Assembly: GCA_038087875.1 (NCBI GenBank)
Contig: CM075988.1
Location: 10,542,001 to 10,606,000, forward strand
Origin: Malacoraja senta
Taxonomy: Eukaryota
Direction: 5' to 3'
DNA length: 64,000 nt
Shown in pieces: positions 4,204-61,880 of the stretch (its first letter is position 1; each line of letters begins with the position of its first letter). A program made the position numbers and the translations under genes. Below the pieces are notes generated by a model. That model saw only the letters and a program-made list of their open reading frames with translations. It was not told the origin of the DNA and did not search any database.

Positions 4204-5020
4204 AAGGCAGGGCCCTGGAGAGTGTTGTAAAGCAGAAGGATCTAGGAGTGCGGGCACATAGTTCCTTGAAAGTAGTATCATGTAGATAGGGTAGTCAAGA
4301 AGACTTTTGGTACATTGGCCTCTATTAGTCAGTGTTTTGATTACAGAAGTTGGGATAGACACAAAAAGTTAGAGTAACTCAGCACGATAGGCAGCATCTC
4401 TGGAGAGCAGGAATGGGTGACGTTTCAGGTCGAGGCCATTCTTCAGAAGTTAGGATGTTATATTACAGTTGTACAAGACATTGCTGAGGCCACATTTGGA
4501 GTATTGTGTTCAGTTTCGGTCACCCTGCCAGAAAAGGGATATTGTTAAGCTGGAAAGAATGCAGAGAATATTTGTGCGGATGATACCAGGACTTGAGGGC
4601 ATGAGCTATCGGGAGAGGTTGGACAGGCTAGGACTTTATTTCCTGGAGCGCAGGAGGATGAGGGGTGATCTTATAGCAATGAACAAAATCATGAGAGGAA
4701 TAGATTGGGTAGACGCACAGTGTCTTTACCCAGAGTAGGGGAATCAATAACCAGATGACATAGGGTTAAGATGAGAGAGGCAAGATTTAAAAGGAGCCTG
4801 AGAGGCAAAATTTCATGTTGAGGGTGGTGCCTCCATAGAATGAGCAGCCAGAGAAAATAGTTGAGGCAGGTAATACAACCACATTTAGTAGACATTTGGA
4901 CAGGTACATAGATAGGAACGGTTTAGAGGGATTTGTGCCACACTTGGGCAGATGGACTAGTGCAGCTGGGGCATCTTGGTCAGCATTGGCAAGTTGGGTC
5001 AAAGGGCCTGTTTCCATGGT
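4149..5020 (+). mobile_element. Older decayed CR1 3' fragment (the target of the young CR1 insertion)
   Basis: Degenerate KCEV..FG, RDLGV, LYKTLLRPHLEYCVQF, RRRMRGDLI motifs and a CR1-type 3' end. Confidence 0.85.
4357..4447 (-). mobile_element. Short Penelope-terminal/hammerhead repeat inserted with a 13-bp target-site duplication
   Basis: Flanks cagaagttgggat (4344-4356) and cagaagttaggat (4444-4456); minus strand reads tctgaagaatggcctcgacctgaaacgtcaccc. Confidence 0.7.
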
Positions 5021-6770: not shown

Positions 6771-6905
6771 ATGTGGGAAGGAACTGCAGATGCTGGTTTA
6801 CATTGGATAGACACAAAATACTGGAGTAACTCAGTGGGTCAGGCAGCATCCTTAGAGAAAACAAATAGGTGATGTTTCGGGGCGAGACCCTTCTTCAGAC
6901 TGAGA
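6771..6905 (-). repeat. Penelope-terminal/hammerhead repeat copy
   Basis: ggaactgcagatgctgg...gagtaactcag...ggtgatgtttcggggcgagacccttcttcagactga. Confidence 0.75.
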
Positions 6906-17571: not shown

Positions 17572-17785
17572 ATGTTCTCTCCATGACCACATGGGTTTTC
17601 TCCAGGTGCTCCAGTTTCCGCCCACACTCCAAAGACGTACAGGTGTGTAGGTTATTTGGCTTTGGTAAAAATTGTAAAATGTCCCCAGTGCGTATTGATA
17701 GTGCGATCGCTGGTTGGATTCGGTGGGCCGAAGGGCCTGTTTCTGCTTTGCATCTCTAAACTAAACTAAATTAAAACTAAACTAA
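17572..17785 (+). mobile_element. 3' part of the split V-SINE
   Basis: ttctctccatgaccacatgggttttctccaggtgctccagtttccgcccacactccaaagac...(ctaaa)n tail. Confidence 0.8.
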
Positions 17786-17985
17786 AGATAGACACAAAAA
17801 GCTTAAGTAAATTAGCGGGTCAGACAGCATCTCCGAAGAAAAGGAATAGGTGACGTTTCTGGTCAGACCAAACCCGAAACATCTCCTGTTGCTTTTCTCC
17901 AGAGATGCTGTCTGATCCGCCTAGTTACTCCAGCTTTTCATGTACATCTTTGTTTAAACCAACATCTGCAGTTCCTTCCCACAAC
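17786..17985. repeat. Fold-back pair of Penelope-terminal repeats
   Basis: Left arm agacacaaaa...cagcatctc...ggtgacgtttc is inverted relative to right arm gaaacatc...gagatgctg...gttactccagc. Confidence 0.7.
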
Positions 17986-22360: not shown

Positions 22361-23499
22361 TTACACAACTGAGCTCCAAGGCAAAGGTAGAAAGATGTGG
22401 CGAAAGGGAGGCAATGTGGGTGTGGCACAGGAACAGTTTAGTTCTATTCCCGGGGAAAACAGAATTAAAAGGTGTAATTGCCTCTGCTTGCATTCACTTT
22501 CTTCAGCAGGCTATTCAATTTTGCTCAGGCATTGTAGCCTGGTCTTCTGAATTGGAACCATTAGCCTAGCCAGCCATATGCTGCCAGAGTTGTTATTTAT
22601 CTGATTTGCTAACATTGCAGCTCGAGTGGAGTATACAATTGCAATCTCAAATTGCTGCAAGATCACTGCTTCTTCATCTGATGCTGCCTGCCATCTTCCC
22701 ATTGTAATACATAGCCTGTATCTGAACAACCAGGGTAAAATCAACTGAAGGTAAGGATACAATTGCCCCCCTACAAACTGGAGAGGTACCGGAAAGTCAC
22801 AGAGATTAACCTTTAAATAATGGAATAACTATGATATGATACGATACGACAACATTTTATTCTGCCCCAGAGGGAAATTGGTCTTGAATGTTAGTTTTGA
22901 GTGTAAAATAGAACAAACATTAAAGCTTTCTTTGACATTAAGGGTTTGAAGGTTAATTGGCCCCTATAAAATTGCCCCTAATGTGTAGGGGGTGGATAAG
23001 AAAAGTGGGATAACAAAGTACTAGTGAGAATATGAGATCAATGATCCATGTAGACTCGGTGGGCTGAAAGGCCTGTTTCTATGCTGTATCTCTAAACTGA
23101 AACTAAACATTTTCTGTTAAACTCCACAATGTCCCTCAAATGTTTCTTTGAACTGCTTTGCAAGCCTGTCCCATAGCAATTCCATGCCTTTGAGATATTT
23201 AACATTTTGAAAATAGGATCAAAGTGAATGAAAACATGTAAACAGTGAGGTCCTGAAGGTGTATGAAGGAACAGCAGATGCTGGTTTAAACCAAAGATAG
23301 ATACAAAATGCTGGATTAACTCAGCGGTACCTGAAGGTGGTTATTCAAGATGAAGAATAAGTGCAAATGTTTGAGCCACCAGAATAGGTTGAAGCAAATA
23401 AAATTACTTTATCACAGCTTCCAATCCTTTAAATGTGTGTTGCCAAAATTTTGGTCCAAATAGTTATTGCACTGAAATTAGTTTCTCCTTTTGACTAAA

Positions 23500-23615
23500 T
23501 GTGTAGGAAGGAACTGCAGCTGCTGGTTTACACTGAAGATAGATACAAAATGTTGCCTTCCATCCATAGATGCTGCCTGTCCCGCTGAATTACTCCAGCA
23601 TTTTGTGTCTATATT
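23500..23615. repeat. Fold-back Penelope-terminal repeat remnant
   Basis: gtaggaaggaactgcag...gatagatacaaaatg followed by the inverted cattttgtgtcta. Confidence 0.6.
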
Positions 23616-25076
23616 CCGTTGACTAATTCAGCCAAGATGTGCCGGCCTATTTTTGTTACTTGCATTAAAGAGTGTAGAGACATTTTTTACAAAAGTACAC
23701 TGTGCTCATGAACGATATCAAACGCATTCTTTTCTAGACTATGATTTTAACTATGGTGGATTTCTTCATGGCAATCGGTGAAAGAAGATAATTCTGCAGC
23801 TAACATTTAATTACAAACTCTCTTATCAGCTAGCACTACATGGTTGAGTTGTTCTGCAAACGCTGATCTTGCAGTTGTTTGGACAGCTCGCCACACGCCC
23901 AGGGACCTTTTATGAAATCAATAACATTCCAGCACTAAACTTCCCCATTAATAATGAGCGGTATCAGTAGTCAGAATATTAATGCGCATATTAAAAGCTC
24001 TGGAGCCATATTATTTTAGCAGGCGAGCATAGGGGATGGTAATGATCTGGCAGATCAGAGCACAAGTGCTGCTGCAATGTGAGGTAATCATTATAAGGTC
24101 TGGTTGGTTTTAATGGGAGTAGGAATATTAAGAAATGTATAAAAGGCTCTATTTCAAATAACATCTTATGGGTGGCTGGGGAACCTATATGATATATTCG
24201 TCTGCAAACTCAAACTGTTTTAATTCCAGCCTCTTATTTACGATCTTTCTCTGAAAGATTTCCTACCTAAAGCTGGTGGGAATGCATAATGAGCTGATGG
24301 AATGACACTGGGAAATTAGGAGAGAGTTTGACTGCTCCTGAAACACTGGAACAATATCCAGATAAAGGTAAGCAAAGAGCTCAAGGTGTCTGGGCATTCA
24401 GACTTACTGCAAATGGAACAGGAATGTACAAGGGAGAGTAGACCTCCTCATTTTCAAACAAAATAACTCGCATTCCACCAATTATCCAACATCCATTTCT
24501 TCACAATTTTCCATGCATCCATCCATCCATACCTGTTCTGCCATGTGCGTTTCCTCCAGGTGCTCCAGTTTTCCCCCCACGTTAATTAGCCACTGTAAAC
24601 TTCCCCTAATGTGTAAAGTGTGGATATAGAAGTGGGATAGCATAGAACCTGTGTGAACGTGTGATCAATGGTCAACTTAGAAGAAAGGGCCAAAGGGTGT
24701 TTCCAAGCTGTATATTTCAATCAATCGATCGATCAATTCACCCCTGATGTTTTTCCATCTCCCCAAATTCTCCCAATTATCTCATCCTCCATTCTACACA
24801 TCTTGTACTCCACTCAATTCACCCAATTCCTAACCACAAACAACCTTAAGGAAAGGTTTCAGGATTGCCACTTGGCGTTTGTTCTTGAAGTTTTTGCTGG
24901 TAATATGTGAGTCTTTCGGTTCTGGAGGTTATAAGGGTGCATGATTAGTATATGGCAAACATTTAAATCATGTCTCTAAGAGAGGTAGGTTGTGGTGATG
25001 CTGAGACAGGGAGTGTTGGGAACATACTGTACATGAATCTCCATCCTTCCCACTCAGACATACAAACACCTTTTCC

Positions 25077-25290
25077 TTGATCATCGTCCCCTTTGATCTG
25101 TGTTTTCACACCTTACTCTTCCATATCTCTATGTCTCCCTCTCCCCTGACACTCAGTCTGAAGAAGGGTCTTGACCTGAAACATCACCCATTCCTTCTCT
25201 CCAGAGGTGCTGCCTGTCCCGTTGATTTACTCCAGCATTTTGTGTCTGTCTTCAGTGTATACCAGCATCTGCAGTTCCTTCCTACACCTT
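25077..25290 (+). repeat. Longer Penelope-terminal repeat with a decayed hammerhead core
   Basis: ctcagtctgaagaagggtcttgacctgaaacatcaccc...cagcatctgcagttccttcctacac. Confidence 0.75.
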
Positions 25291-26224: not shown

Positions 26225-26870
26225 AGGTTTAAGGTGAGAGGAGAAAAGATTTAATAGGAACCTGAGGGGCAACTTTTTCACACAGATGGTGGTGTGTCTA
26301 TAGAACGGGCTACCAGAGGAGGTTGTTGCGGCAGCTACTATAACAACATTTAAAATACATTTGGATGCATGGATAGAACCTGAGGGGCAACTTTTTTACT
26401 CAGACGGTGGTGAGTTTATGGTACAAGCTGCCAGAGCAGGCAGTTGAGGCAGGTACTAAAATAACATTAAAATCACATTTGGACAGGTACACAGATAGGA
26501 AAAGCTTAGAGGGATATGGGCCAAATGCAACCAGATGGGCCTAGCATAGATGGGGCATCTTGGTCAGCATGGACAAGTTGGGCTGAAGGGCCTGTTTCTG
26601 CATTCTATGACTCTAGATCTGCCAAGGAAGCTAAACAGAAGAAACAAGGAACTCTGTGGAATTCTTTCCCACAGAAGGCTGAGGAGGTCAGGTTTTTTTT
26701 AAGGCAGAGGCAGATAGAGTCTTGATTAGTACAGGTGTCAGGGGTTATGGGGAGAAGGCAGGAGAATGGGGTTAGGAGGGAGAGGTAGATCAGCCCTGAT
26801 TGAATGGCGGATTACACTTGATGGGCCGAATGGCCTAATTCTACTACGATCATTTATGGCGTTATGACAT
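26225..26870 (+). mobile_element. Stacked CR1 3' fragments
   Basis: aacctgaggggcaacttttt present twice; two CR1 3' UTR ends. Confidence 0.75.
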
Positions 26871-27081
26871 GAACTGCAAATGCTGGTTTACGCAAAAGGA
26901 CACAAAGTGCTGGAGTAACTCAGTGGGTCAGGCAGCATCTCTGGAGAACATGGATAGGAGACATTTCTCGTTGAGACAATCATTCAGATTTATTGTGTAA
27001 GGCAGTTGCTTAATCTACAATGAAATACTTGTGTTCTGATTCATTCCCATGCCTCAGCTCTCTTGACTCACCAGATTATAC

Positions 27082-27131
27082 TCATCTGCATTTGCACTGT
27101 GGGATAAATACCACAGTGCAAATGCAGATGA
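27082..27131. repeat. Perfect 21-bp inverted repeat with an 8-nt loop
   Basis: tcatctgcatttgcactgtgg-gataaata-ccacagtgcaaatgcagatga. Confidence 0.95.
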
Positions 27132-29364
27132 TTCTTTTGATCTTATTTTAAGTCCAGATCTCTTATTCATATGCATTGGGTGCATCTCCATATATTTCTT
27201 GCAAGAAGCAACATATAACTACTTTTTTGAATGATCTGAAAGCAAAAGCATTTGTATATCAAAGTTACCACTGAGTTAGCCCCACCTTTAATTCAGAGGT
27301 TCTGAGACAAATTATAGCACGCCTCACTGTTACCCCTAAATGTGACTAGATCATCATAGAAACCGACAGAGGTAAAAGTGAAGCATGTCTCTGGGTGTGT
27401 GTAACTCAGTGTGAAGCCTCTGCAATCAAAAATTAACCTCTCCACATGACACTGTGGTGGCTACATGGAATTTCTTTCAATTCATAGATTCGGTTTCTTG
27501 TTTCCTATTGTATTTTCTACAATGGAATGTCTGTTTCTTTTGCCGCTGAGTATTACCAGTGCAATAAATAGAGGTTTGCAATGACTCATTAAGTATGAGC
27601 TCCAATTCATTACTGGGAAATTAACTTAGACTCCTCAGCAAACTGATTTAATGAGAGGCCTTATTAGCTCCCAATCTTAGGACTGCAGTATATACTTTAT
27701 TGAGCCAGAAAGCATTTGGGTTTCCAGAAATTGTCTGTTATACTCTACACATCTTGAAAATGTACGATCCACTGCGCTGTTCTTACTTAAGTTTTATTGA
27801 GTTCTTATGGGAAAAAAAATACAAACCGCAGTAGTGCAGAGACACCTGCACATATGATTTCCTGAAGTACTTTTGCTCCATCTTGCCAGTCGCTAGCAAT
27901 CAGCCAAATCCCCACTTGTGCTCCTTGGCAGGTTTATAAAGCCCCTGTTAAAATATGACATTTTCTCATTATTTAATTAGTGCTCATTTGTCCAATTACC
28001 TGTCACCCCAATCGCACAAACCACCAGATTTGAATACGATGATATCTCTGATCTTCGTCCTCATTTTAATAAGAGAGTACAGATTCAGTAGAATTTTTAA
28101 TAGCCAAGCAAATTAGGCCCTGAGAGAGGGAAGAGTGTGTTATGGTTGGATCAGTCCCTTCCAAATTTAACTGCAGGGCTGGATTATCACATTTTCTATC
28201 TCCATTTCCCAATTACCGTTGGGTTAATTGTTTTTTGAGCAGGCGGGCAGCATGGTCAGTGTGGTTCAGATAATGAGAGGAATATTATATAGAAAATAAC
28301 TGAGCAGAATGATAAATGTAAGAGAAGGGAGAATCAGAGGTGAAGGTCATGGAAGATTTGCTTCAAGGTTTTCAGGATTCCCTTCAAGATGGCGGCAGGA
28401 GCGGCAGACGGAAGAAACGATCGTGGCCAGTGAATGTTCTGAGAGCTTAACTTCCGCACCCTTGGGGTCACTCTGGGTCAGAGGGGGAGTCATCCCAGGG
28501 CATGGAGGTTGAACAATGGCCATGGCTAGGGCCACTGGCGAGCAATGGCGAGGGACGGAGAGTTCACGGGCTGATGTCGAGGAGGCTTGGGAGTGGCCAA
28601 GTCAGCAGAGTGGGCAGCTGGAGGCCTTGAAGCAGCCTGAAGCTCCTTTAGATCAGATGCCCCTCTGGGTGGCCAAAGGAGCAGAAAGGATGTGGCCTGC
28701 AGCGGCACAGAACGGTGGAGTGACAGTGGGGAACATCGACATATTCCCTAGCAAGGCCGATCCCAGTATCTCCGACCCAGTGCCGCTGCCAGGACCATGG
28801 GCCCTTCTGGCCAAGTTAACACTCTAACGTTTTCACAAATAAAATCAGACTTGAAGGGTACAAGATGATGCCTAAAATGTGGCGACTCTTGTGTACGGTC
28901 TCAGCGTGGTCTATTGTCTTTATACTCTTGGTATAATTGTGCCTAATGTATAGTAGGAACGTCATTGAATTACACGCAAAAAGAGTATTTCACTGTACTT
29001 GGGTACATGTGACTATTGAACCATTCATGTTGGAGAGATATCTCAAGGATGGGAGATGTGTGGCATTGGATTGTACCTAAAAAGGGAGATACAGATTATG
29101 CTGGGAGGTATTTTTGGCTGATACGAACATGTTGACGTAGGATCTCTGTACTACTACCAACACATATTGATATCATTCTGCTCAATAACGACTCAAGTTA
29201 TCTAGAACATTTTCAGATGGTCATGCAGCATGAAAACAGGACCTCTGACCCAGAGGTCCACTACAACCATCGACTACCATTTGTACTAATCTAATAACTC
29301 AATTTTATTCTCACCACATTGCCATCAAATCACCCTGATTCGGCCACGCATCAGGGCTAATTGA

Positions 29365-30314: not shown

Positions 30315-30445
30315 GCTGAAGAAGGGTCTCAACCCAAAATGTCCCCCATTCATTCTCTCCCGAGATGCTGCTTCCTGCTGAGTTACTCCAGCATTTTGTG
30401 TCTATCTTTGGTGCAAACCAGCACCTGTGGTTCCTTCCTACCCAA
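30315..30445 (+). repeat. Penelope-terminal/hammerhead repeat copy (decayed)
   Basis: ctgaagaagggtctcaacccaaaatgtcc...gagttactccagcattttgtgtc. Confidence 0.7.
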
Positions 30446-31499: not shown

Positions 31500-31990
31500 T
31501 TTGCCAGCCGTCAACTATACTGCACAAAACAAAGTATCGGAAGTCAACGGATCAGGAACCATCTGTTCAGGGAATGGACAGATGCCATTTTGGGTTCGGA
31601 CACTTCTCAGACCCTGGTTTGGCCCTGGCAGAATTGCTGGGTAGATTTGTTTTTTCCCCCATATTGTATATAATGTTTAATCTCTGCTTTAATCACTGAC
31701 CTTTGTTTCAACTATCTGCCTCTCAATTCTCCATTCCCCTCCCTTATCTGTGTCCATCTATTACCTGCCATGCTTGGTCCTGCCTCTCTCCTCTCCCAGC
31801 TTTCACTTCACCCTCCCTCTACCATCGGTCTGAAGAAGGTCCCCAACCTGAAACATCACCTATCCATGTTCTCCAGAGACGCTGGCTGACCCACTGAGTT
31901 ACTCCAGCACTTTGTGTCCTTTTGTGCTGGAGGAACTCAGTAGTTCAGGCAGCATTGATTGTGGGAATGTTTAGATGACACTTCAGGTTA
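31500..31990. repeat. Cluster of Penelope-terminal repeats in both orientations
   Basis: ggtctgaagaaggtccccaacctgaaacatcacc at ~31827 with inverted partners on either side. Confidence 0.6.
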
Positions 31991-33879
31991 GGAATATTCC
32001 TCTGGCCTTGGTCGGACCCAATCTGAACTGCTGGCTAGAATCTTTATTTTAATCATTTTTTACACAGGATGTGGGCGAGCATAGTGCATAGGTTTATTGA
32101 TCCAACTTTAAATGAACAACTGCCTGCCCTGTACAAAATCAGAATGGGACATCATATTTCCCTTGGCATATAGAGTTTATAGGTTGTGTCCCTGGCTTAT
32201 CTGGAGTGCAATCACTCTGTAGCAGTATTTGCCCTGGTGTCACCGAGGAGAATTCTGCATTGTTCGTTTGCTGCTGACATTCACAATAAATTTGAATAAA
32301 AAGCAACTTTCCCAGTTTGTTTTCAGAAACCACTGGGTAGATTTATTTTGTTCTTTTTTTGTTCAGGATGTGAACATTACAGGTAAGCCATACATTTATT
32401 GTTTATCTTTGAATGCCCTTGGACAGTGTGGCTTGCTGGGTGACTTCAGAGGATGCTCAATGATCAATCACTTCATTGCCCATCTGGATCAGCACATACT
32501 CCAGACTGGGTAAGAATGACAATTGTCTTTGACAATGAAGTGTTTTTTTTGTGTGAAGCATTTCTAGATTATTAGCTGAATTTATATCATGGTGGGATTT
32601 GAACGCAGGTCTTCTGAGACTGTTAGCCTCGGCCTCAAAATTACTGGTCCAATAAATGAACCTCTTTTCTGGTGGGGCTCATCAAGTCCTGCATAGATTA
32701 AATCCCGATTAAATAGCCAATAACAGATTGAAGAGGTGGGCGGAGGAAAGCGAGAGAATGGAAGATGGGATACAAAGAAGAGGAAGACAGGGAGTGCAGG
32801 GAGAGGGATGGAGAGGGAGGGAGGATGTGAGGAGCAAGGAGAAGGAAAGTGGGAGGAAGGATAGGAATGGTTGCTTTAACGTACCGGCCTGTACATCTTT
32901 GTGATGGGAGAAGGAAACAGAAGAACCAAGGAAAAACCAATGCAAACACAGGGAGAGCCTGCAAACTCCACACATATCAGTATTGAGGCAGGATCACCTG
33001 AGCTGTGAAGCAGCACCTCCATTAGCCGCACTAATGTGCTGCCAAAACATGCCCCTCTTTGAATTCAAGCTCAGCCTTAATTGCAGTTCACAATTTGTTG
33101 AATTTCCTGTTAAAAACGGTGCTCATCAGTCGAAACAATTACCACTTAGATTTGCAAAATGGAGTGCTGATTTATATTGGCCTCCACTGAAAAGTGTTTC
33201 ATTTGCTGTGGTGTAGAAACTGAGAGAGTTAGCAATATGAGACTCTGTCAGGCAACACAAAGGTTTGACAGAGAAAGAGAGAGAAAAATGTGTCCAGAAT
33301 ATTTCATTGATTATCGAATATATGAGACATTTACTTGAAATAAGCACACCTGCTTCAATTTTCTTTGCCGTATTATTTTCTAAATATTTTTTTTACAATC
33401 TTAGGAATCTTCCTAGATTGCAATGTTGTGAGCCTTCGGGAACTTGACAACTATGCAAGGCACTTGATCTGTGGATGACATTACAATTCTCTCTCTTGCA
33501 AGTTGTCAAGTGTCTGTTTAGTATTGGTTAAACTTGGTGAAGGGAGTTGATAGACTTCAGCTCAATTGAAGCATATCAGAACGTGCGATGCATTACCTGA
33601 CAATTGTTTTCCTTCAGTGACTCCAATACAGTATTTATTCTGGACCAGCCACACTGAAGGTTGTGGAACGATTGTTGCTTTGTTAATGTGAATGATGCAA
33701 TTGTTATTCTAAATGTATTCCTCCCATCTTTACAAAGCATAGTTTAACTTTGAGATTCCTAGATCATGCTTTCTTATTTGAAGCAGTTATTTAAAGATAA
33801 ATCATTGATGATACAGTGACTCTAAAATTCTAATACAATTAATGAATCTCCCACAGCCTTTGTTAGTCTCAAATTCCCT

Positions 33880-34195
33880 CCGCACCTCCCCCAACCTAGA
33901 CGTCCTGCCCGTTCGACTGTTCGCATCAATATATCCCTTCATTATCACCTCTTCCACAACCAACAATGGACCATTGTGGTCTCCACCTTTCCTTGGTCTT
34001 CAGTGCTGGCTCTGATTTGCTCTGAACCTTTTTAAACTAGTTTCCCTCCCCCCTGACTCTCAGTCTGAAGAAGGGTTTCGACCCAAAACATAATCTATTT
34101 GTTTTCTTCAGCGATGCTACCTAACTGCTGAGTTACCCAAGCATTTTGTGTCTATCTTCAGTGTAATCCAGCATTTGTAGTTCCTTCCTACACAT
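33880..34195 (+). repeat. Long Penelope-terminal repeat copy
   Basis: aacaatggaccattgtgg...ctgactctcagtctgaagaagggtttcgacccaaaac...gttccttcctacac. Confidence 0.7.
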
Positions 34196-34456: not shown

Positions 34457-34660
34457 TTGTGTAGGAAGGAACTGCAGATGCTGGTTTAACCCAGATAGAC
34501 ACAAAATGCTGGAGTAACTCAGTGGGACAGGCAGCATCTCTGCAGAGAAGGAATAGGTTACTAGTGTGAAGAAGGGTCTCGACCTGAAATGTCACCCATT
34601 CCTTCTCTCTGGAGATGCTGCCTGTCCCGTTGAGTTACTCCAGCATTTTATGTCAACCTA
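34457..34660. repeat. Fold-back (head-to-head) Penelope-terminal repeat pair
   Basis: acaaaatgctggagtaactcagtgggacaggcagcatctc...gagatgctgcctgtcccgttgagttactccagcatttt. Confidence 0.85.
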
Positions 34661-34819
34661 CAACCTGTGTTTGTCACTCGCTGAAAATCATGCACCGCTG
34701 CAATTCATACATGAATTAAAATGTTTAAGAAGGAACTGCAGATGCTGGAAAATCAAAGGTAGACAAAAATGCTGGAGAAACTCAGCGGGTGAGGCAGCAT
34801 CTATGGAGCGAAGGAAATA

Positions 34820-34855
34820 GGTGACGTTTCGGGTCGAAACCCTTCTTCAGACTGA
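34820..34855 (-). ncRNA. Minimal type-I hammerhead ribozyme motif (best-preserved copy)
   Basis: Minus strand UCAGU-CUGAAGA-A-GGGU(UUCG)ACCC-GAAAC-GUC-ACC: conserved core boxes, UUCG-capped stem II, palindromic ACGU stem III, GUC cleavage triplet. Confidence 0.75.
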
Positions 34856-35104
34856 TGAATTAAAGAGTGCCAGCTAGGACAAGTATATTCTACCCTCCCA
34901 ATGCACCTATGTTGATGATGACTGGTTTGCTTCAGTAGCCTAACAACACAACATGTCTTTAAGCTTGCAGTGAATTTAAACCACAGGAGTTAGTGCTTCT
35001 GATTTCTGCCTGTGTTAAAAACCTGTGCTTGGCGGCAGCTTGTCTGTGTGCAATTGTGATAGATAGGGGGTGGAACATGTGGCCAGATGCCCAAAAGCAT
35101 CCTA

Positions 35105-35715: not shown

Positions 35716-36759
35716 CCTTAACTAGTATTAATCATGTCTGTTTTATTTACTTTGCACGTGTTTTATTCAGATACTGAAAAACGATTACAATAAAAGCAAG
35801 GATTAGTTAAAATAATGGAAATATTTTGCAGTGCAGAGAGTTCTCCCTGGATATTTTTCAGAAAAAGTTACGTACAGACACAAAACCTTCATCACAAGGG
35901 AGACCATTAAAATCTTGAAAATAAACCTTCTTAAGAAAGTTGATATGAACCTGAGGACTATTACCAAGTAGAAAGGCTGAAAATATTTTGTGGGAGTTCG
36001 GCGTGGTCAACATGGCGGCCGCATTTCCGACGTTATGATTGTGACCACACTTGGAAAATAGATCAGAGTTATTAAACTAAATGACAATCTTACTAAAATC
36101 CCCATTCAGTCTGAAGAAGGGTCCTGACCTGAAATGCCATTCTCTTCACAGTTGTTGTCTGACTCACTAAGTTCTCCAGCACTTTATGTTTTATTAAAAT
36201 TCCCCTTGGACTTAGTAGATTGTGAATGCAAGACCTACTGCAAAGAAATCTATATGATCCAGTCCGGTACTGAGGGGTGCTGCACTGTCAGGTGTTGATC
36301 TGATAATCAACATTGTAACAAAGCCTTGTCAGTTATATGAACATTGCATGGCACTATTCTGTAGGAGAGTGGAGGATTTATTTCCAATTTGCTGGAGAAT
36401 ATTTGTTAAAAAATTTTGAGCAACATTACGGAAATAGGTTGTTTGGTAATAACCATTATGTCATAATTATTTTTGCATTTGTCAGAGTTTGCTACAATCA
36501 ACATGGCTGCCTTCTTGTAGTTACAAGGAACTGCAGATGCTGGTTTACCAAGGAAAGACAACATGCTGGAGTAATTCAGTGGGTCAGGCAGCATCCCTAG
36601 ATAATATGGATAGGTGGCATTTCTGGGCGGTACCCTTCTTCGGAAAGATCTGAAACACCACCTATCCATGTTGTACAGTGATAGCTGCCTTATTTCCAGC
36701 ACTACATTTGTGATCATGCACGAAAATATATCATCATCTCTAACGTGCTGATTCATCTG

Positions 36760-37857: not shown

Positions 37858-39895
37858 AACCCCTGTCTCACGGTGCGAGCTGACCCACGAGGTACCCCGA
37901 GCTTAAAACAAAGTTAACTCGTGGTAATCACGTATGATTAACCTAGCGGGAACGTCGGAACTCGTGGACGCAACTTAGCGACTCTTGGCGCTAACGGCAG
38001 GTACCCGTGACACTTGTTAACTCTTGGAAAAATTCAAACATGTTTAAACTTTTCCACGAGTAAAATGTACTCTTCAGTTTAAAAATTGAAACATTTAAAC
38101 ATGTTGTAAGAACGCAGTGGCCCGTGCGTTTACCTTAGTGACTCGTGAGTCTACCGTGGGAACTCTTTAACTCAGCGGGCAGGCAGCATCTCTGGAGAGA
38201 AGGAATGGGTGATGGGATGACATTTCCAAATTGGGGGGAGTGGGGGGTTGGAGCAGGGGGGGGGGGGTGGAGGAGAGAGGGTGGAGAGTGGAGGGAGAGG
38301 AGGGGGAGACAGATGAGGGTGTCTTCATTCACTAGCGGCGGGTGCCGGTCACTGAAACAGGCAGGTGAGATTTCACATCCACCTTGTGTGTGTGTGTCTC
38401 TCTCTCCCTCCCTGCCTCTCACACAGGATGAGAGACTCTGCCTCTGTGAGTGTACGTCTCTTTCTCCCCCTCTCCCACACACAGTAAGACCAAGGTAAGT
38501 CCATCTGTGTAAGTCCATCTGTGTCTCCCACATACACAGTAAAACTCTGCTTTGTGTGTATATACGTCTCCCCCCATTTTTCTCTTTCTCCCCCCCACCA
38601 CCTCTCTCTTTCTCCCCCCCACCTCTCTCTTTCTCCCCCCAAACACAATAAGACCAATGTATTCTGCTTCGTCTCTCTTCGCTCCCACACACACAGATAG
38701 ACCGAGGTCCTGTGCGCTCTTTCTCTCTCCCCCACAGTCACGCTGAAGTACACCACACTGCCTCTGTGCCTCTCTCTCTCTGTCCCTCTCCCCTCTCTCC
38801 TTCATACACAGTCAGAGGTCCACACTGTCTCTGTGTCTCTCTCTCCCCTACACACACACACACACACAGACTGAGGTACACACTGCCCGTTGTGTGTGTG
38901 TGTCTGCCTCTGTTTCTCTCTCTCCCACACACACAGTTAAAGGTACTCCACGCTGCCTGTGTGTGTGTGTCTCTCTCTCTCTCTCTGTCCCACCCCCCAC
39001 ACCCACACACAGTCAGTCAGTCAGAGGAACTCCACACTGTGTGTGTGTGTGTGCGCCTCTGTCTCTCCCTATCACAGTCAGAGTGAGGTACTCCCCCCGC
39101 AGTCTCTCCGGGCAGGGTGCATCTGCCTCCCTCAGGCTGCCCAGGCAGTCAGACATGACTCCGGTGGCGGGCTCCATGCACAGCTCCTGCCGGCCGGCTG
39201 GGAGCGGCGACGGAGGACAGGGGGAAGTTGGCCACCAGCGGGGCAGTCTCAGCTCCCCATGCAGTCCAAGTCTCGCTGGATCCTCGTAATCCTCTGCCTC
39301 TGTCAAATGGGTGAGTTTAACCTGAACCCCCCCCCCCCAACCTCCCTCCACCTCAACTCACGCCTGGGCACCAAAGCAGCTCAGGAGGCGAACCCTGAGC
39401 TCCGTCTCCCAACAATCTGATGTGCGCATCCGTGCACATTCAAAGATTTCATCTCCAGTCTCCCCGCAGTGTGTAGACCTGGCAGTAAATGCAATTAAAA
39501 TATAGCAAACCTCCGCCTGTTGGTCTTCTAACTACATGATGTGTGTTTCAAACAAATCATCAGTATAACTGCTCTGGCACATTTTCCCTTTGTAGGTCAC
39601 ATCAATAGATGCGGCTGCGCTGAATTCTATCTTTAATTCAAAGCCGCAGGATGGAGATGTTGCTTATTAAAACAGACCTTCATTCACGTTTGGCTCAAGA
39701 GTAACTCGGGAAAGGAACTTGTTAACTCGGGAGACGAACTTGGAACATCGCAGAAATGACAGTTAACGGCAAACTTGAGTCATACCCGTGGGAACTCGGT
39801 TAAACTCTTGATCATACACTTGGAATCTCGTGCACAACCACGAGTCTTTCACTCGGGGTACCTCGTTGGTCAACTCGCACCGCGAGACAGGGCTT
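37858..39895. mobile_element. Non-autonomous PIF/Harbinger-like transposon, ~2 kb, with cargo
   Basis: ~45-bp TIRs (aacccctgtctcacggtgcgagctgacccacgaggtaccccgag / ctcggggtacctcgttggtcaactcgcaccgcgagacagggctt); exact TAA TSD at 37855-37857 and 39896-39898; subterminal aactcg(t/g) repeats. Confidence 0.85.
38380..39090 (+). repeat. Complex (CT)n/(CA)n/(GT)n minisatellite inside the transposon
   Basis: Recurrent unit ...tctctccccacacacagt.agaggt.ccacactg.gtgtg... Confidence 0.8.
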
Positions 39896-41334
39896 TAACA
39901 CCATCCTACACACACTAGGGACAATTTACAATTTTACCAAGTCAATTAACCTACAAACCTGTACATCTTTGGAGTGGGGGAGGAAACCCACGCAGGTCAT
40001 GGGGAGAATGTACAAACTCCATACAGACAGCACCCATAGTCAGGTTTGAAATCGGGTCTCTGGCGCTCTAAGGAAGCAACTCTGCCACTGCACCACCATT
40101 TCTGAATCTAGTGGTGTGAGGAGCTTCTATATCTTCTGTCGGACAAGAGCGATGAGAAGAAGGAATGATGGGCTGGGACAAGTCAAATTATGTTGGCTGC
40201 TTTACCAAGCCACATGAAGTGTAGAGGGAGACCAATGGCCTTGATTGAATCCAGTGCTTTCAGGCCATTTCTAGAAAACACGTGCAGTGAATTGAATTAG
40301 CTGAAGGCTGTGAGGGTTGTTGTGATGGTTGTTATTAAAAGTACCCTTCCTCTAACACAATGAGATCTTTTATGTCTCCTTCATCATGAGCCTTTGGATT
40401 AATACGACATCCACAAGGCAGCAAGTGAGTAATTGGCAACGTCTCCAAAATTCAAATCCTCACAATGGGATTAAAACCCTCAATAAAACGAGAGAACTAG
40501 CTGAATGGTTTATAAGGAAGGACAGAGATGGAGACAAAGAGTGCTTAAAAATAAGGAATGGTCAGAGAATTTGTGGAGGAACAGAAATGATTAAGCAGCA
40601 GAGGTGATAATTCTTCATGCCTGAAGGACATTCTTTAACAGATGCTGACAGATTTACTACATTTGTGACTGTATATTTTTTTCAATTTCCAACATCAGCA
40701 GAATATTTTTTCTTCTAACTTTAACTAAAGAATTACTAGTTTCTCTATCACGGATGTAACTCGGCTGTTCTCGAATATCCATTAAAAAAAAACGTTTCCA
40801 CATTGCAGTGTCAATAGGTTGCAATATATCTGGACCTAATGTTTACAAAGGATTGAATTATCAGATTTGACGGAATGACAAAATGCCTTGTCACAATTCT
40901 CCTTGCGCATGCTAATATGCAGCAGATGTAGTGCAGGAAGAAAATAATGCAGAACACCCTCATTACCTCCAATTATTCAATTCTTGTTTTAATTATAAAA
41001 CTCAGATTCATTATAATGCAATCATCTGAGGTTTAGGTTTATTTGACTTGCTGATAAATGCATTAGTCAGTCAGGGAGTTGAGTTTAATTTACAGAAAGC
41101 AATGCTTCAAAACAAAACTATTCCACTTGCTTCATTAAGACTTCTTGATAATACTATACTTCAGCACTGGGCTTAATCTCCTGATGTGCAGAGACTTTCT
41201 GTCATTGAGACCTGGAGAGATGTGTGGAGGAATGATGTCTTAATTCTTTGGCTCACAATACACTGGCCACCCTTATGACACGGAATCAATGTCAATTGTA
41301 CTATTGTCTTCATATTATATTTTAGCAAAAAAAG

Positions 41335-42905
41335 ACCAAAGTGCTGCAGCATTTCAGTGGATCAGCCAGCATTTCTGGTGAATGTGGATCAGTGACATTT
41401 CGGGTTGGGACCCTTCTTCAGACTGATAGTGGTGGGGGCGGGGGGGTGAGAAGAAAGCTGGAAGAGAGGAGAGGAAGGACAAAGCCCGGCAAGTAATAGG
41501 TTGATACAAGTGAGAGGAGGTGGGTTAGGAACATAGAAACATAGAAATATAGAAAGATAGATGCAGGAGTAGGCCATTCAGCCCTTTGAGCCAATGTGAT
41601 TCAATATGATCATGGCTGATCATCTAAAATCAGTACCCAGATCCTGCTTATTCCCCATATCCCTTGAATCCTTTAACGCTAAGAGCTAAATCTAACTCTC
41701 TCTTGAAAACATCCAGTGAATTGGCCTCCACTGCCTTCTGTGGCAGAGAATTCCACAGATTCACAACTCTCTGGGTGATTTTTTTTCCTCATCTCAGTCC
41801 TAAATGGCCTTCCCCTTATTCATAAACTGTGACGCCTGGTTCTGGACTCCCTCAACATCAGGAACATTTTTCCTGCATATAGCCCGTCCAATCCTTTAAT
41901 AATTTTATATGTTTCTATAAGATACCCTCTCATCCTTCTAAATTCCGGTGAATACAAGTCCAGTCGACCCATTCATTCATTATATGTCACTCCCACCATC
42001 CCGGGAATTAACCTGGTGAAGCTACGCTGCACTCCCTCAATAGCAATAATGTCCTTCCTCAAATTAGGAGACCAAAATCGCACACAATACTCCAAGTGCG
42101 GACTCACCAGGGCCCTGTACAATGGCAGTAGGACCTCGGTCGATACAAAATACTGGAGTAATTTAGCAGGTGAGGCACTCCTTGCTCCTGAACTCAAATC
42201 CTCTCGTAATGAAGGCCAACATGCCATTAGCTTTCCTAACTGCTTGCTGTACCTGCATACTTACTTTCAGTGACTGATATACAAGCACACCCAGGTCTCG
42301 ATGCACCTCCCCTTTTCCTAATCTGACATAATTCAGACACCACTCAATCTGCTTTCCTGTTCTTGCCACCAAAGTGGATAACCCCACATTTATCCACATT
42401 ATACTGCATCTGCCATGCATCTGCCCACTCACCCAACCTACCCAAGTCACCCTGCAGCCTCAGCATCCTCATCGCAGCTCACGCTGTCACCCAGCTTTGT
42501 GTCATCCGCAAACTTGGAGATGTCACATTTAATCACCTCGTCTAAATCTTTAATATATATTGTAAATAACTGGGGTTCCAGCACCGAGCCTTGCGGCATC
42601 CCACCAGCCACTGCTATGGTTGATACTCAGATGATTAGACAAGGCCGAGGGATGAAAAGACAGAAGGTGTGAGACAAAAGGATTGTTAATTGTAAATCTA
42701 AAGGAAGTAATGTCAGTGGAGTGGGTCGGGGAGGGGAGATATAGATGCAAGTCCAGGTGAGGCCTGCTGGAGAGCACGGGTGGAAGATGGAGGAAGGATG
42801 GGGAGAATGAGGAGGAGGAAATTGGAGAATTCAATATTGGTACTGCTGGGTTGTACGTTAACCAGGCGGAACACGAGATGCTGTTCTTCCAGTTTGCGTT
42901 TCACC
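41335..42905 (-). mobile_element. Penelope-like element 3' remnant (GIY-YIG C-terminus + terminal repeat + hammerhead), interrupted by a CR1
   Basis: 42904-42820 encodes KRKLEEQHLVFRLVNVQPSSTNIEFSNF, resembling the PLE endonuclease C-terminus; purine-rich terminal repeat on both sides of the CR1; ctgaagaagggtcccaacccgaaatgtc at 41391-41426. Confidence 0.7.
41530..42612 (-). mobile_element. CR1 RT 3' fragment
   Basis: (catagaaa)n tail; decayed GMPQGSVL, FADD, HLEYCV motifs. Confidence 0.9.
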
Positions 42906-43764
42906 TCATTAACTTTTATTTGTTACCATAGAAAAAATGTTAACATTTCTTCAATGTGTGTTCCAACTTGAAGTTCTCTCCAAAATAATGAGAAGTATCT
43001 TTTTCTGAATATTTATGGAAGACATCTTACAATTCTAATGTCACACAATTTAACGTGAAAAAATGTGTTCAACTTCAAGTTTGAGTTTTGTTAGTATGCC
43101 GTCTTGAGGCATTTAAACTTACCCCTTGTGATTTCCAATTTGTTAAAATGGAGTAAACCATCAATATGTACCTTATGCATCATCTTTTAGTTATTTGATT
43201 CTGTTAGGTCACTTTGAATCAAGTAGAAGGTATAGAGACCAAGGTGTTTAATCTATCTGGGTAGATTTTTTTTTTAAGCACATATTCATTCCACTACTCT
43301 GCCAGACTATGTTCATGGGTCTGTGTATCAACTATCATGTGGGAAATAGGAGGGTGGGGATCAAAACTCGGCAATCTTTACTAACATGTGTCTGGGTAAC
43401 GATCTCTGGCGTGATTCGATCTGGGGAAGTAATCCAATATTAACTGCAATCCTGCAGAGAAAAGGTTTAGATTTCAAAGCCTTTTTAAAAATTCACAGAA
43501 ATAATGTTGATAATACTTTTCTCATCTGTATGACCTCCTCAAAAAATGTAAATAATTTAAAGAATAGATTGACTTTTGATAGAGTCAGATGTGCTGTTAC
43601 CACACCCAGTTGCTTCATGGTGTTATCGCTCTAATGTCTAAGAATTTTTCATGGTTTGAGTACAACAAACATTTTTCTTCATTTGATCGCTTTTTGTATG
43701 GTTTCTTCTAATCAATATTGTCCACCAAATATGCATTATCAGATTTATCTATTTCAAAGGGCAA

Positions 43765-43950
43765 ACGGATACAAAGTGCAGGAGGTCAGGCAACATCTCT
43801 GGGAAATGTGAATAGGTGCAGTTTCAGGATGAGACCTGACCTGAAATGTCACCTATCCATGTTCTCCAGTGATGCTGCCTGACCTGCTGAGTTACTCCAG
43901 AATTGTGTGTCCTTTTGCATATTAGTCAGCATCTGCAGTTCCTAGTTTCT
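43765..43950. repeat. Fold-back Penelope-terminal repeat pair (decayed)
   Basis: ggtcaggcaacatctctgg...gtttcagg / cctgaaatgtcacc...gatgctgcctgacc. Confidence 0.65.
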
Positions 43951-44326: not shown

Positions 44327-44908
44327 AGGCTCTGTCTTACCTGTTTGCGGTCATCGGCGGTGAAGCGCGGCGTTGCCAGTAGCGGGGACCGCGCGGCAAC
44401 GGCGAGAGCGCCGAGCCTATCCACGGGAGTGCCGCACGGATGCTGCGCGGGGGCCGAGTAATTCAAACACGGCGGGTCACACGTGCTTGCGGTATGTAAA
44501 AAAAAGGGCGGGCCGACTGCGATGACGTCGGCCCGCCGCACGTGACTCACGAGCGGCGGCTGTGGCGGCGGCCATCCTGATCGCGGCGCTGTAGCGGTGG
44601 CTGTGACTGCGGCCGTGCCGCACACGTGCCTCACTAGCGGAGGCTGTGGCAGTGGAAGTTTGATGCACGGCGCTCGAGCCACACTGGCGGCGGCCCGTGC
44701 GAGCGGCCGTGCCGCACTTGTGCATCACTGGTGGAGGTTGAGCGGTGAGTATATAGTTTTCGACATTGTCGATTTTATTTTAGCACCGTGCGGTGTTGGG
44801 AACACCGCCGCACGGCCCTGGAATTGTACGTTCTCACGAGTGCGCGGTCTATGGCGGCAGATTCTTCCCGTTTCGCCGCCAATGACCGCAGACTCGTGAG
44901 ACAGGCCT
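44327..44908 (-). mobile_element. CpG-rich Harbinger-like MITE, copy 2 (inverted)
   Basis: aggctctgtcttac...gtgagacaggcct with TAA/TTA flanks; reverse complement of copies 1 and 3. Confidence 0.9.
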
Positions 44909-45819: not shown

Positions 45820-46185
45820 TGGGCAGCATCTGTGGAGAGAAAGGATGTGTCTTGTTTCAGTTCGGGACCTTTCTTCAGTCTCTGAAGAAGGTTCCCGACC
45901 CAAAACGCTACCCATCCTTTTTCTGCAGAGATGCTGCCTGATCCGCTGAGTTACTCCAGCACTTTGTGTCTATCTTTGGTCTAAACCAGCATCTGATTTG
46001 TTCTTTTCATGCTTTTTAATCTTTTTTTCTTTGTACCTTTTCATACCTCTAGTTTCCCTCCCCTGACTCTCAGTCTGAAGAAGGGTCTGGACCCAAAATC
46101 TCACCTATTCCTTTTCTCCAGAGATGCTACCTCACCTACTTTGTCACTCCAGCATTTTCTGTCTATCTGCAGTTCCTCTGTACAC
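45820..46185 (+). repeat. Two tandem Penelope-terminal/hammerhead repeats preceded by an inverted arm
   Basis: ctgaagaaggttcccgacccaaaacgc (~45882) and ctgaagaagggtctggacccaaaatc (~46075). Confidence 0.7.
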
Positions 46186-57059: not shown

Positions 57060-57300
57060 AAGCAGGCCTCTACTAGGCACTGCCAGCGGAGCCGTCCCCA
57101 CGGCCTCCCGCCTGCACAACTCCTCCTGGAGTATGGCTTTATGAAGCAGGCCTCTCCTAGGCACTGCCAGCGGAGCCTTCCCTAAGGCTTCCCGCCTGCA
57201 CTACCCCTCCTGGAGTGTGGCTTTATGAAACAGAACCTCTCCTAGGCACTGCCAGTGGAGCCTTCTCTATGGCTTCCCACCTGCACTACTCCTCCTGGAG
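57060..57300 (-). repeat. Three 84-bp tandem units inside DIRS gag
   Basis: aagcaggcctct.ctaggcactgccagcggagcc starting at ~57060, 57144 and 57228. Confidence 0.85.
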
Positions 57301-58460: not shown

Positions 58461-59744
58461 GATTGACTTGAATGTTCTGACAACACAGGTTGGAATAAAG
58501 TCAGAACAAAATCCTGTTGCGCCACCTTCCTTCTTTGCGATCCTTCAAAACCCCAGTACGAGGCTTTACTGGAGTGAGTTCATACCTCTGCAATGGAAAA
58601 AAAAAGACTCACAGTGCTAGAGTAACACAAGAGGCCAGCCAGCATCTCTGGAGAACATGGAATGGTGACATTACGGGACAAGACCCTTCCAACCTATCTA
58701 CGCTTTCTAGAGATGCTGCCTGACCAAATGAGTTACTTCAGCATTTTGCGTCTTTATTTTTGTAAATCAACATCTGCAATTCCTTGTATCTTGTCTGCAG
58801 TGGAAAAGGCTGACATTTCCAACCCCGTGATCCCCTCAAACCTGTGGTCTGGACCTTGATCAGATCCTCACTCCTAATGTATAGGTATTTGATATTGCTG
58901 ATAGATAAGAACATTTTCAAAAGAGCACTAACTCTATTCTTAACAGATCCCCTGATACTAAATGCTGTTATGTCGTGAAAGATAAAATGTGCTTATCAAA
59001 AACATAAACTTAAAGATTCCCAAGGCGTGCAATAAACAGTGGAATATATTAACATACAATATTCTTGAACAGAAAATGTATGCACTTCATTTAATGGGGC
59101 TTTAATGTAAGAGTTGAGGCAGGTGCAATATTTGATATTTAAAAGTTATGTGGAAAGGTACATGGATAGGAAAGGGTCTGAGGGAAATAGTGGGAAATGG
59201 GATTGGCTTAGATGGGGTATCTTAGTCAGCATGGTCTGAAGAAGGGTCTCGACCAGAAATGTCACCCATTCCTCTCCAGAGATGCTGCCTGTCCTGCTGA
59301 GTTACTTCAGCTTTTTGTGTCTATCTTCAGCATGGATGAGATGGGTGGAAAAGCCTTTATCCATGCTGCATGCCTCGATTACTCCAAGCTGCATGCTTCT
59401 GTCATTCCATGACTAATTTGAATTTTGCTTCATTAAAATTTCAATCATAATTTCAATCAAGATGTCAATCCCCATCTTCAATTTAGATTTAATCCTTATC
59501 AAATAAAATGGAACTAATTAAGAGTCACGGAGAGGGGAACAAAATTTTGTTTTTTCACCTCAATTGGCTTCTTTAAATTATGTTCTCATGATATTCACAT
59601 ATCAAACGTAGAAATATACTGCACAGGAACAGGCCCTTCAACCCACAATGTATGTTTGAACATGATGCCAAGATAAACTAATCTCATCTGCCTGCACATG
59701 ATCCATAATCCTATTCATAAATATCCATAACCATGTGCCTAAGA

Positions 59745-60397: not shown

Positions 60398-60528
60398 TAG
60401 GAAGGAACTGCAGATGCTGGTTTTAACTGAAGGTAGACACAAAATGCTGGAGTAACTCAGCGGGACAGGCAGCATCTCTGGATAGACAGAATGGGTGGTG
60501 TTTCGGGTCAAGACCCTTCTTCAGACTG
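60398..60528 (-). repeat. Penelope-terminal/hammerhead repeat copy (cleavage triplet mutated)
   Basis: rc tcagtctgaagaagggtcttgacccgaaacacc. Confidence 0.75.
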
Positions 60529-61065
60529 AACCTTGCTCCTAAACTCAAATCCTCTCGCAATGTAGGCTAACATGCCATTAGCTTTCTTCACTGCCTGCCA
60601 AACCTGCATGCTTACTTTCAGTGACTGATGTACAAACACACCCAGGTCTCGATGCACCTCCCTTTTTCCTAATCTGACACCATTCAGATAATAATATGCC
60701 TTTGTGTTCTTGCCACCAAAGTGGATAACCTCACATTTATCCACATTATACTGCATCTGCCATGCATCTGCCCACTCACCCAACCTATCCAAGTCACCCT
60801 GCAGCCTCATAGCATCCTCCTCACAGCTCACACTTCCAACCAGCTTTGTGTCATCCTCAAACTTGGAGATGTCACATTTTATTCCCTCGTCTAAATCGTG
60901 AATATATATTGTAAATAGCTGGGGTCCCAGCACCGAGCCTTGCGGCACCCCACTAGTCACTGCCTGCCATTCTGAAAAGGATCCGTTAATTTCTACTCTT
61001 TGCTTCCTGTCTGCCATCCAATTCTCTGTCCATGTCAATACCCTATCCCTAATACCATGTGCTCT
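60529..61065 (-). mobile_element. CR1 RT internal fragment
   Basis: SGVPQGSVLGPQLF, FEDDTKL, KCEVIHFG. Confidence 0.9.
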
Positions 61066-61734
61066 GTGCTCTTGTGTACTCCCAGAGTAATCTACCATTC
61101 CTACACACTGGTACTTAAGTACAATTGTGACAATGTATAATAAGTTTATTCCTGAAATGTATGCAAGAAATGGAATTTCAGTGCTTCTGGGTACAATAAA
61201 GCACGATACCTTCAAACCATTGAACCATTTCAGACCAATTAGTTTCAATTGAAATAGCCATTCTTGGTGTGTGACTGACAAATGCCTAAACCTCTTTTAG
61301 TCCCACACCAGAGGATTGTGTTTAGCCTGCTTCTGTTGCTGTCAGCAGTGTCTGTTCTTTGAATTACCTGCACAGTGCCGCATCTGTCTGCGCGTGTTCT
61401 GCTGTCTTAATGCAGCCCTGTATCCGTGGCATCTTGTCCAAGAGTGAGTGATGTGAGGCAGACAAACACAGACGGGAAGAAGCAATCTCTCTCTTTCATC
61501 CAAAGTGTTATCAGCTTGAAAACAATGATCAGACATCAGGTTGTAATCAGCGAAATGCGAGTTCAGATTCAGAAGGGTTGGGGGACTTCTGAGATTTGTG
61601 ACAATTCAAGATGAATGTTGTTGCAGTTTGGAAACTCACCTCCAGTGCATTTTGAGCGGGGTGGCCACGATCAGTATGTGTGGCATATTCCCAACAGGGA
61701 AGATGCACAGGAAATACTCAAACAGTGTGAACAG

Positions 61735-61880
61735 AAGATAGACACAAATTGCTGGAGTAACTCAGCGGGATAGGCAGCATCTCTGGAGAGAAGGAATGGG
61801 TGATGGTTCGGGTTGAGACCCCTCTTCAGACTGTGTCTATCTTCAAATTAAACCAGCATCTGCAGTTTTTTCCTACACAG
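61735..61880 (-). repeat. Penelope-terminal repeat copy with an inverted tail
   Basis: gatagacacaaattgctggagtaactcag...gagacccctcttcagact-gtgtctatc. Confidence 0.7.

Follow-up and report, generated by a model that had tools for sequence, protein, structure and literature searches.

Introduction

Minimal hammerhead ribozymes were described in 2014 in the pseudo-LTRs (pLTRs) of metazoan Penelope-like elements (PLEs) (Cervera and De la Pena, PMC4209133). In the available text of that paper, monomers were without activity, dimers had low activity, and the extra nucleotide of the motif was itself linked to canonical hammerheads. Non-LTR retrozymes, for which canonical hammerheads and circular RNAs are given as features in the available part of PMC7229834, are another described system close to the repeat analysed here.

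The repeat is dispersed in a 64-kb stretch of DNA (hereafter the window) from a presumed cartilaginous fish, and a sequence-only reading had taken it for a SINE-like or retrozyme-like non-autonomous family mobilised by Penelope machinery. The second half of that proposal stands; the first is not supported, as the copies have no lineage of their own and are ends of autonomous PLEs. It is very probable that the repeat is the 5'-truncated 3' pLTR of such elements, with a predicted hammerhead that probably works solely in parental RNA longer than one unit and is likely inert when dispersed. This reading rests on the identity to an intact element, a truncation ladder, two 3' ends, target duplications and inverted partners.

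Results

Repeat copies in the window

A profile built from 47 natural copies located 31 copies in the window, one per 2.1 kb (Table 1). About 20 copies at roughly one per 3 kb had been read by eye; the high number and density were borne out and the two figures were not, and all 17 positions then named lie in or beside a copy found by the profile, which confirms a dispersed repeat with a common core. The core pattern matched 16 times in the window at ≤3 mismatches and never in 100 shuffles. The CpG-type decay suspected earlier was also found (differences in 127 of 518 CpG cells of the core, compared with 136 of 2097 core cells outside CpG). A minimal-hammerhead descriptor that asks for the two boxes, four base pairs in stem II and two in stem I was passed by only one of the 31 copies, 34850(-), which is thus the single full minimal hammerhead, and gave no match in a reversed-sequence control of 80 genome stretches. 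The check with Rfam hammerhead models that had been proposed returned no hammerhead family at E≤1 in the window, a scan that is uninformative for minimal motifs. No tandem array of the repeat was found in the window.

Table 1 Features of the repeat family in the window (window coordinates; pLTR, pseudo-LTR)
Feature	Position	Strand	Basis
Decayed pLTR end	4353..4447	-	profile
Decayed pLTR end	6775..6904	-	profile
Inverted pair of pLTR ends	17778..17980	17778-17865 minus, 17872-17980 plus	profile
Two partial pLTR ends	23262..23625	23262-23331 minus, 23534-23625 plus	profile
pLTR end with ~84 nt of parent 3' UTR	25068..25284	+	profile
Old decayed pLTR end	26868..26989	-	profile
Decayed pLTR end	30316..30440	+	profile
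Three old pLTR ends	31540..32002	31540-31612 minus, 31824-31925 plus, 31925-32002 minus	profile
Longer copy with ~184 nt of parent 3' UTR; relatives extend into GIY-YIG coding sequence	33875..34190	+	
Inverted copy without core, head-to-head against 34563-34664	34462..34561	-	sequence + profile
Decayed copy, core broken, partner of inverted pair	34563..34664	+	sequence + profile
Target-site duplication, 3' copy, 10 bp	34711..34720	-	
5'-truncated PLE insertion: 3' pLTR, hammerhead to long 3' end, 134 bp	34721..34854	-	
Optional ~35-nt PLE 'tail' between two preferred 3' ends	34721..34755	-	end counts in young copies
Minimal type-I hammerhead motif, the window's only intact one	34821..34852	-	sequence
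Stem I 5' strand GU	34852-34851	-	sequence
CUGAAGA box	34850-34844	-	sequence
Extra A	34843	-	sequence
Stem II + loop GGGU/UUCG/ACCC	34842-34831	-	sequence
GAAACGU	34830-34824	-	sequence
C17	34823	-	sequence
Stem I 3' strand AC	34822-34821	-	sequence
Target-site duplication, 5' copy, 10 bp; last 3 bases match parent too	34855..34864	-	
Decayed pLTR end	36106..36190	+	profile
Closest upstream same-strand copy relative to the intact one; core not intact	36522..36648	-	profile
pLTR fragment	38168..38213	-	profile
Old-subfamily pLTR end with ~96 nt of parent 3' UTR	41324..41523	-	profile
pLTR fragment within a LINE	42124..42177	-	profile
Last 31 codons of PLE endonuclease (61% identity), then old-subfamily 3' UTR	42818..42910	-	tblastn
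Inverted pair of pLTR ends	43779..43945	both	profile
Inverted pair + extra copy	45822..46176	45822-45881 minus, 45881-45997 plus, 46069-46176 plus	profile
Inverted pair of pLTR ends	58609..58786	both	profile
Decayed pLTR end	59234..59333	+	profile
pLTR end with decayed GUC triplet	60398..60529	-	core pattern + profile
Decayed pLTR end	61710..61833	-	profile

Some features outside the repeat family were also recorded in the window. A LINE reverse-transcriptase-like fragment at 42000-42600, which we take to be CR1-like, abuts the PLE endonuclease/3' UTR remnant and contains a pLTR fragment. A near-perfect 60-nt hairpin at 27075-27138 has a weak mir-3012 score (43.6 bits, gathering 90) and is more likely an inverted repeat than mir-3012. 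CpG-rich patches amid AT-rich DNA (44496-44561 and 36000-36035) are possibly promoter-like and had no RNA support in the runs examined, and a tandem repeat with an 84-bp unit (2.9 copies, 89% matches) lies at 57060-57300.

The intact copy

The copy at 34721-34854 (minus) is identical at 126 of 133 positions (95%) to the 3' pLTR of an intact element, L384, described below. The sequence-only reading had called its motif complete, and the CUGAAGA box, extra A, GGGU-UUCG-ACCC stem II, GAAA, ACGU and GUC could indeed all be read on the minus strand; the predicted cut site also came out at the same position, 34823/34822. Stem I had been given as 2-3 bp, which is right in being short and is 2 bp long, not 3. 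The sequence features used to recognise PLE minimal hammerheads are present (CUGANGA, GAAA, U16.1, H17, the extra nucleotide and G10.1-C11.1), which supports a PLE-type minimal type-I hammerhead with an extra nucleotide and an ACGU palindrome. The palindrome, at 34827-34824, could allow a dimer helix III (positions 15-16). No intact hammerhead partner for this copy exists within the window, and no reads of an RNA run of a related species fell on the unique flanks of the locus. The predicted hammerhead of this lone copy is likely inert.

The parent element

Longer copies of the repeat extend upstream into GIY-YIG endonuclease (EN) coding sequence, and a genomic fragment carrying both reverse transcriptase (RT) and endonuclease has, at its end, sequence that matches the window copy at 93%. 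All 30 RT-EN bodies fetched terminate in the repeat (88-94% identity), and their staggered 5' starts form a truncation ladder. L384 (G000:C8, 47.64 Mb) is an intact PLE with a single 1,238-aa ORF, RT then GIY-YIG, containing YIDD, a CX4CX2C linker and the endonuclease motif YIGET; its 165-nt direct repeats (the pLTRs) hold two intact hammerhead motifs 3,996 nt apart, both with these sequence features of PLE minimal hammerheads. Another element, L385, encodes 1,212 aa in the same domain order. The linker CNRKRCNTC of both matches the CX2-5CxxC zinc-finger criterion of the Neptune clade, which by this motif alone points to Neptune as the clade of the host element, although Nematis has the same linker. 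The Pfam GIY-YIG domain was found on the protein P0001 (E 2.9e-6), with a further GIY-YIG match under the cut-off, and Atlas neighbours carry RVT_1/HTH_animal/GIY-YIG (0.97). The RT-GIY-YIG ORF, direct pLTRs, optional tail, 5' truncation and inverted partners together are the features by which EN+ PLEs are recognised, and each was found here.

The family has many further members, including a near-complete, frameshifted PLE with pLTRs at both ends (L092), a PLE in partial tandem (L095), several uninterrupted frames, 1,222-1,302 codons long, from 69 matches that were scored, and 39 more hammerhead-to-ORF junctions at 98-99% identity among 40 scored candidates. The 5' hammerhead is intact in 18 of 20 young full-length elements, and all 20 have 28 to over 1,400 nt upstream of it, in a set whose query favoured copies with such upstream sequence. 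Four of the 20 (L386, L390, L395 and L402) start 314-320 nt upstream of the 5' hammerhead, within endonuclease coding sequence; they may mark another hotspot or a start site, or may simply be copies related to one another. At the start of the PLE body in L092 (4848-5135), RNA reads of the related species are strand-skewed (e.g. 48 vs 2), unlike at the pLTR, in a library whose direction is not known.

The PLE returned first by the Pfam GIY-YIG search belongs to a different, telomere-associated family without match to the repeat and was rejected as the parent. This second, very young PLE family was seen at G000:C14:18.24-18.41 Mb, at C17:5.8-11.6 kb and on many small contigs (L051-L056, L059). 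It has an intact 759-aa RT + GIY-YIG frame after a ~590-aa frame (weak GDSL-like Pfam match, E 0.004) and forms tandem arrays at contig ends, with units of up to ~7.5 kb and runs translating as PN repeats (telomere-like hexamer).

Abundance and subfamilies

The genome was sampled in 140 evenly spaced 10-kb stretches of large contigs (1,398,600 bases), which held 606 matches (4.33 +/- 0.30 per 10 kb, 4.2% of bases). Extrapolated from this sample, about 0.84 million repeat ends are present genome-wide, and the 50 of 606 matches with an intact core correspond to about 69,000. The copies fall into several subfamilies and lie 5% to 19% from the majority letters of these. A link to an upstream endonuclease was found in three of five subfamily clusters within the sample and, for the old subfamily, in four of 25 loci fetched with a window copy; the oldest cluster (36 copies) had none in the sample. 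Target duplications of at least 7 bp flank 28 of 125 copies, compared with a shuffled mean of 2.6.

Ends of the copies

The ends were counted in 62 young copies, namely those of 125 copies passing a looser filter whose identity to a young natural reference was 88% or more. Relative to C3, 35 of the 3' ends lie at +86 to +101, 27 at +123 to +133 and none between; these two ends, about 35 nt apart, are the optional tail of PLEs. At the other side, 38 of 62 copies end between +10 and -7, the 5' edge of the hammerhead (14 of 53 at +10 to +2, 2.9% per nt; 24 of 39 at +1 to -7, 6.8% per nt), with one copy broken at a poly-C run assigned to the long class. Other zones have 0.07-0.5% per nt. Around the cleavage site the rate was 3 of 60 (1% per nt), without a peak, and none appeared there in a wider set either (11 of 346). 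The group at +10 consists of fold-backs at a near-palindrome in stem II. Among copies of all ages that reach the core (n=198), 94 stop within 20 nt, 54 meet an inverted neighbour and 50 extend further. Families from metagenomes have a softer 5' pile-up (19 of 80 within 9 nt).

With the ends of young copies gathered at the 5' edge of the hammerhead (38 of 62) and no peak at the cleavage site, uncleaved RNA was likely the template of most inserts. The 5' stop may be due to the folded motif, to the TCAG-T-CTGA palindrome or to a transcript start at TCAGT. Two candidate signatures at the 5' junction were rejected. A fixed 9-base start common to short copies proved to be target-site sequence combined with ranking bias, and an extra, cap-derived G was not replicated (4/11, 7/11 and 2/7; background 0.32).

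Short and long copies

After 41 copies with inverted neighbours had been set aside, 105 short or long copies with good scores remained. In 48 of them the nearest neighbour belonged to the same length class, compared with 54.6 +/- 5.9 on shuffling. Because the short copies are mixed with long ones in the same subfamilies, they are by-products and not a SINE or retrozyme lineage, and the amplifying lineage separate from a coding partner that defines a SINE was thus not seen in the nearest-neighbour test. ARAGORN found no tRNA-derived Pol III head in the window, though it can miss decayed heads, and the short copies begin at the hammerhead. Consecutive tandem units each with a complete hammerhead, as retrozymes have, occurred neither in the window nor in the 140 stretches, where a same-strand pair of intact motifs was found once, 6.9 kb apart. 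Among 89 neighbours within 60 nt in the first 80 stretches, 56 were head-to-head, 28 direct and five tail-to-tail. Head-to-tail duplications of the hammerhead core ~40 nt apart were noted at L007:1620-1720 and L102:8290-8380, both examples without two intact cores, and a back-joint resembling them is present in a DNA run.

Evidence on the ribozyme

A search of metagenome contigs with the core gave 123 scorable matches with 66 distinct flank sets, from other organisms. Position 17 was H in all 66 (never G) and stem I averaged 2.9 bp against 1.2 when shuffled, neither being part of the query, which shows the architecture to be that of a real type of hammerhead. In these contigs (L178-L298) the core sits in many unrelated repeat families, several with upstream GIY-YIG coding sequence.

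Greater conservation of the core boxes than of the flanks had been set as a test of the ribozyme; the direction was as expected and the significance borderline (variable columns between subfamilies, 1 of 14 in the core vs 21 of 63 in the flanks, p=0.057). The covariation sought in stem II did not rise above shuffles (score 0.178, 51 of 500 shuffles as high, 17 aligned window copies), and stem changes between subfamilies were one-sided compatible only. Mismatches per copy outside CpG were 6.5% in the core vs 10.8% in the flank, which was not counted as selection because the core had guided both the choice and the alignment of the copies. For this lineage, selection acting on the ribozyme is suggested, not proven.

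PolyA reads of the related species cover the repeat alike on both strands, and 95% continue into unlike flanks. In Drosophila Penelope, splicing swaps stem I; no GT-AG splice joint at the AG before the core was among the joints listed for these reads, nor was an RNA-only back-joint among those listed for this polyA library of another species. In this one polyA run, read starts and ends piled up neither at the cleavage site, a weak test, nor elsewhere on the repeat. Self-cleavage by lone dispersed copies appears unlikely.

Discussion

Alternative explanations

The short form could be a true non-autonomous SINE- or retrozyme-like element, transcribed, cleaving as a dimer, perhaps circularising, and moved in trans by PLE protein. 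A very high copy number of one size class with a similar 5' end, as in 94 of the 198 core-reaching copies, is what such a family would give and speaks against our own reading, as do the direct repeats among close neighbours (28 of 89), the ~40-nt core duplications, the softer 5' pile-up in the metagenome families, the borderline core conservation, the absence of covariation above shuffles and the oldest cluster without an endonuclease link in the sample; small direct tandems occur, and retrozymes tied to PLE pLTRs are described for one chondrichthyan in the available part of a preprint (bioRxiv 10.64898/2026.07.22.740005). This is nevertheless very improbable, given that the short copies form no separate lineage, the single same-strand intact pair in the 140 stretches is 6.9 kb apart, the window has neither a tandem array of the repeat nor a tRNA head, the 5' ends spread over ~18 nt away from the cleavage site, and RNA reads of the related species are equal on both strands, run into unlike flanks and do not pile up at the ends. 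A variant of the preferred explanation, differing only in the cause of the 5' hotspot, would make the short copies run-off products: the PLE mRNA would start at the initiator-like TCAGT directly preceding the hammerhead, and copying primed within the 5' pLTR would run off that end. The hotspot coincides with the TCAGT motif, and promoters inside the pLTR (PMC2377424) and internal priming (PMC11167929, available part) are known from PLEs. We consider it unlikely, since the 5' ends are spread and not fixed, the cap-derived G failed to replicate, sequence lies upstream of the 5' hammerhead in every young full-length element of the biased set, and read starts do not pile up.

The hammerhead might also be a dead vestige even in the parent, its sequence being kept as a protein-binding or priming structure. 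Of the genome's 62 copies with an intact core, 47 have a stem I of only 2 bp, but the same is true of 16 of the 66 flank sets from metagenomes. For the window copy, a 6-bp rival hairpin burying GAAA has a predicted pairing probability of ~0.78 vs ~0.07 for stem II, and the core conservation is no more than borderline. Hammerhead mutants of the Anolis PLE had no effect on insertion in vitro, yet the motif was cut only with protein present (PMC11167929, available part). Moreover, differences inside the motif between subfamilies are confined to loop 2, position 17 (C/U), U-A to U-G and one CpG decay. A vestige is possible but doubtful, and a hammerhead confined in its function to the more-than-unit RNA of the parent remains the preferred reading.

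Proposed mechanism and meaning

By analogy to the Anolis PLE in vitro, the element protein would nick DNA and copy uncleaved RNA, with reverse transcription beginning inside the RNA at either of two points, which lie downstream of the hammerhead by about 95 and 130 nt. Copying would mostly stop or switch template at the 5' edge of the hammerhead, leaving SINE-like pieces of 100-135 bp. In the parent, the two hammerheads 4 kb apart may pair via ACGU, probably assisted by protein, and cut after position 17. A further and decidedly unlikely idea is that the uncleaved hammerhead acts as a stop or template-switch signal for PLE RT which has produced ~0.8 million SINE-sized inserts (4% of the genome), among them ~70,000 intact half-ribozymes able to pair via ACGU with PLE RNA or each other and cut transcripts in trans.

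These results correct the annotation of a common short repeat, about 4% of sampled bases, as a PLE end and not a SINE or retrozyme. As the family is young and intact (full-length copies 98-99% identical), it is usable as a vertebrate model for the role of PLE hammerheads.

Comparison with known systems

In retrozymes, units stand in head-to-tail tandems with a ribozyme each, whereas the copies here lie scattered, singly or in inverted pairs, and grade into a coding parent; what the two have in common is a short repeat without coding sequence, akin to PLE pLTRs, that contains a type I hammerhead (available parts of PMC7229834 and bioRxiv 10.64898/2026.07.22.740005). The single ORF with RT then GIY-YIG, the CX2-5CxxC linker, pLTRs from partial tandems, inverted 5' copies, a 30-40-bp optional tail and heavy 5' truncation are as in Neptune-clade EN+ PLEs, unlike which the element here has a long proline-rich N-terminal region with internal repeats (PMC8557442, available part).

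Poseidon_Ac of Anolis (Frangieh et al. 2024, PMC11167929, available part) likewise has two 3' ends, or internal RT start sites giving a tail, with the hammerhead upstream of the RT start sites, and uses uncleaved RNA as template without reads at the cleavage site. The genomic pile-up of 5' ends at the hammerhead edge supports that in vitro result on the template. Poseidon_Ac belongs to the Poseidon clade and has its ATG inside the hammerhead, whereas the ATG here lies ~165 nt downstream. The 5'-end pile-up is a feature of the present repeat that the available part of that paper does not describe for Poseidon_Ac, and no description of such a hotspot was found in open-access literature text.

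The closest agreement is with the minimal hammerheads of Cervera and De la Pena (PMC4209133, available text), which share the type I form without helix III, the extra nucleotide between 9 and 10.1, the G10.1-C11.1 pair, the palindrome at 15-16 and a motif in both pLTRs, and which mostly occur genome-wide as single motifs tied to truncated PLEs, with nearby opposite-strand pairs. Stem I is 2 bp here vs 4-5 bp in the Schistosoma families, and about 69,000 intact motifs compare with ~4,000 in coelacanth and ~9,000 in Xenopus tropicalis, counted there with another descriptor. No shark or skate is named in that text or in two of its supplements. By the features tested, the element belongs to the PLE pLTR minimal hammerheads known since 2014; what is new is their scale here, an intact young parent and the 5'-end hotspot.
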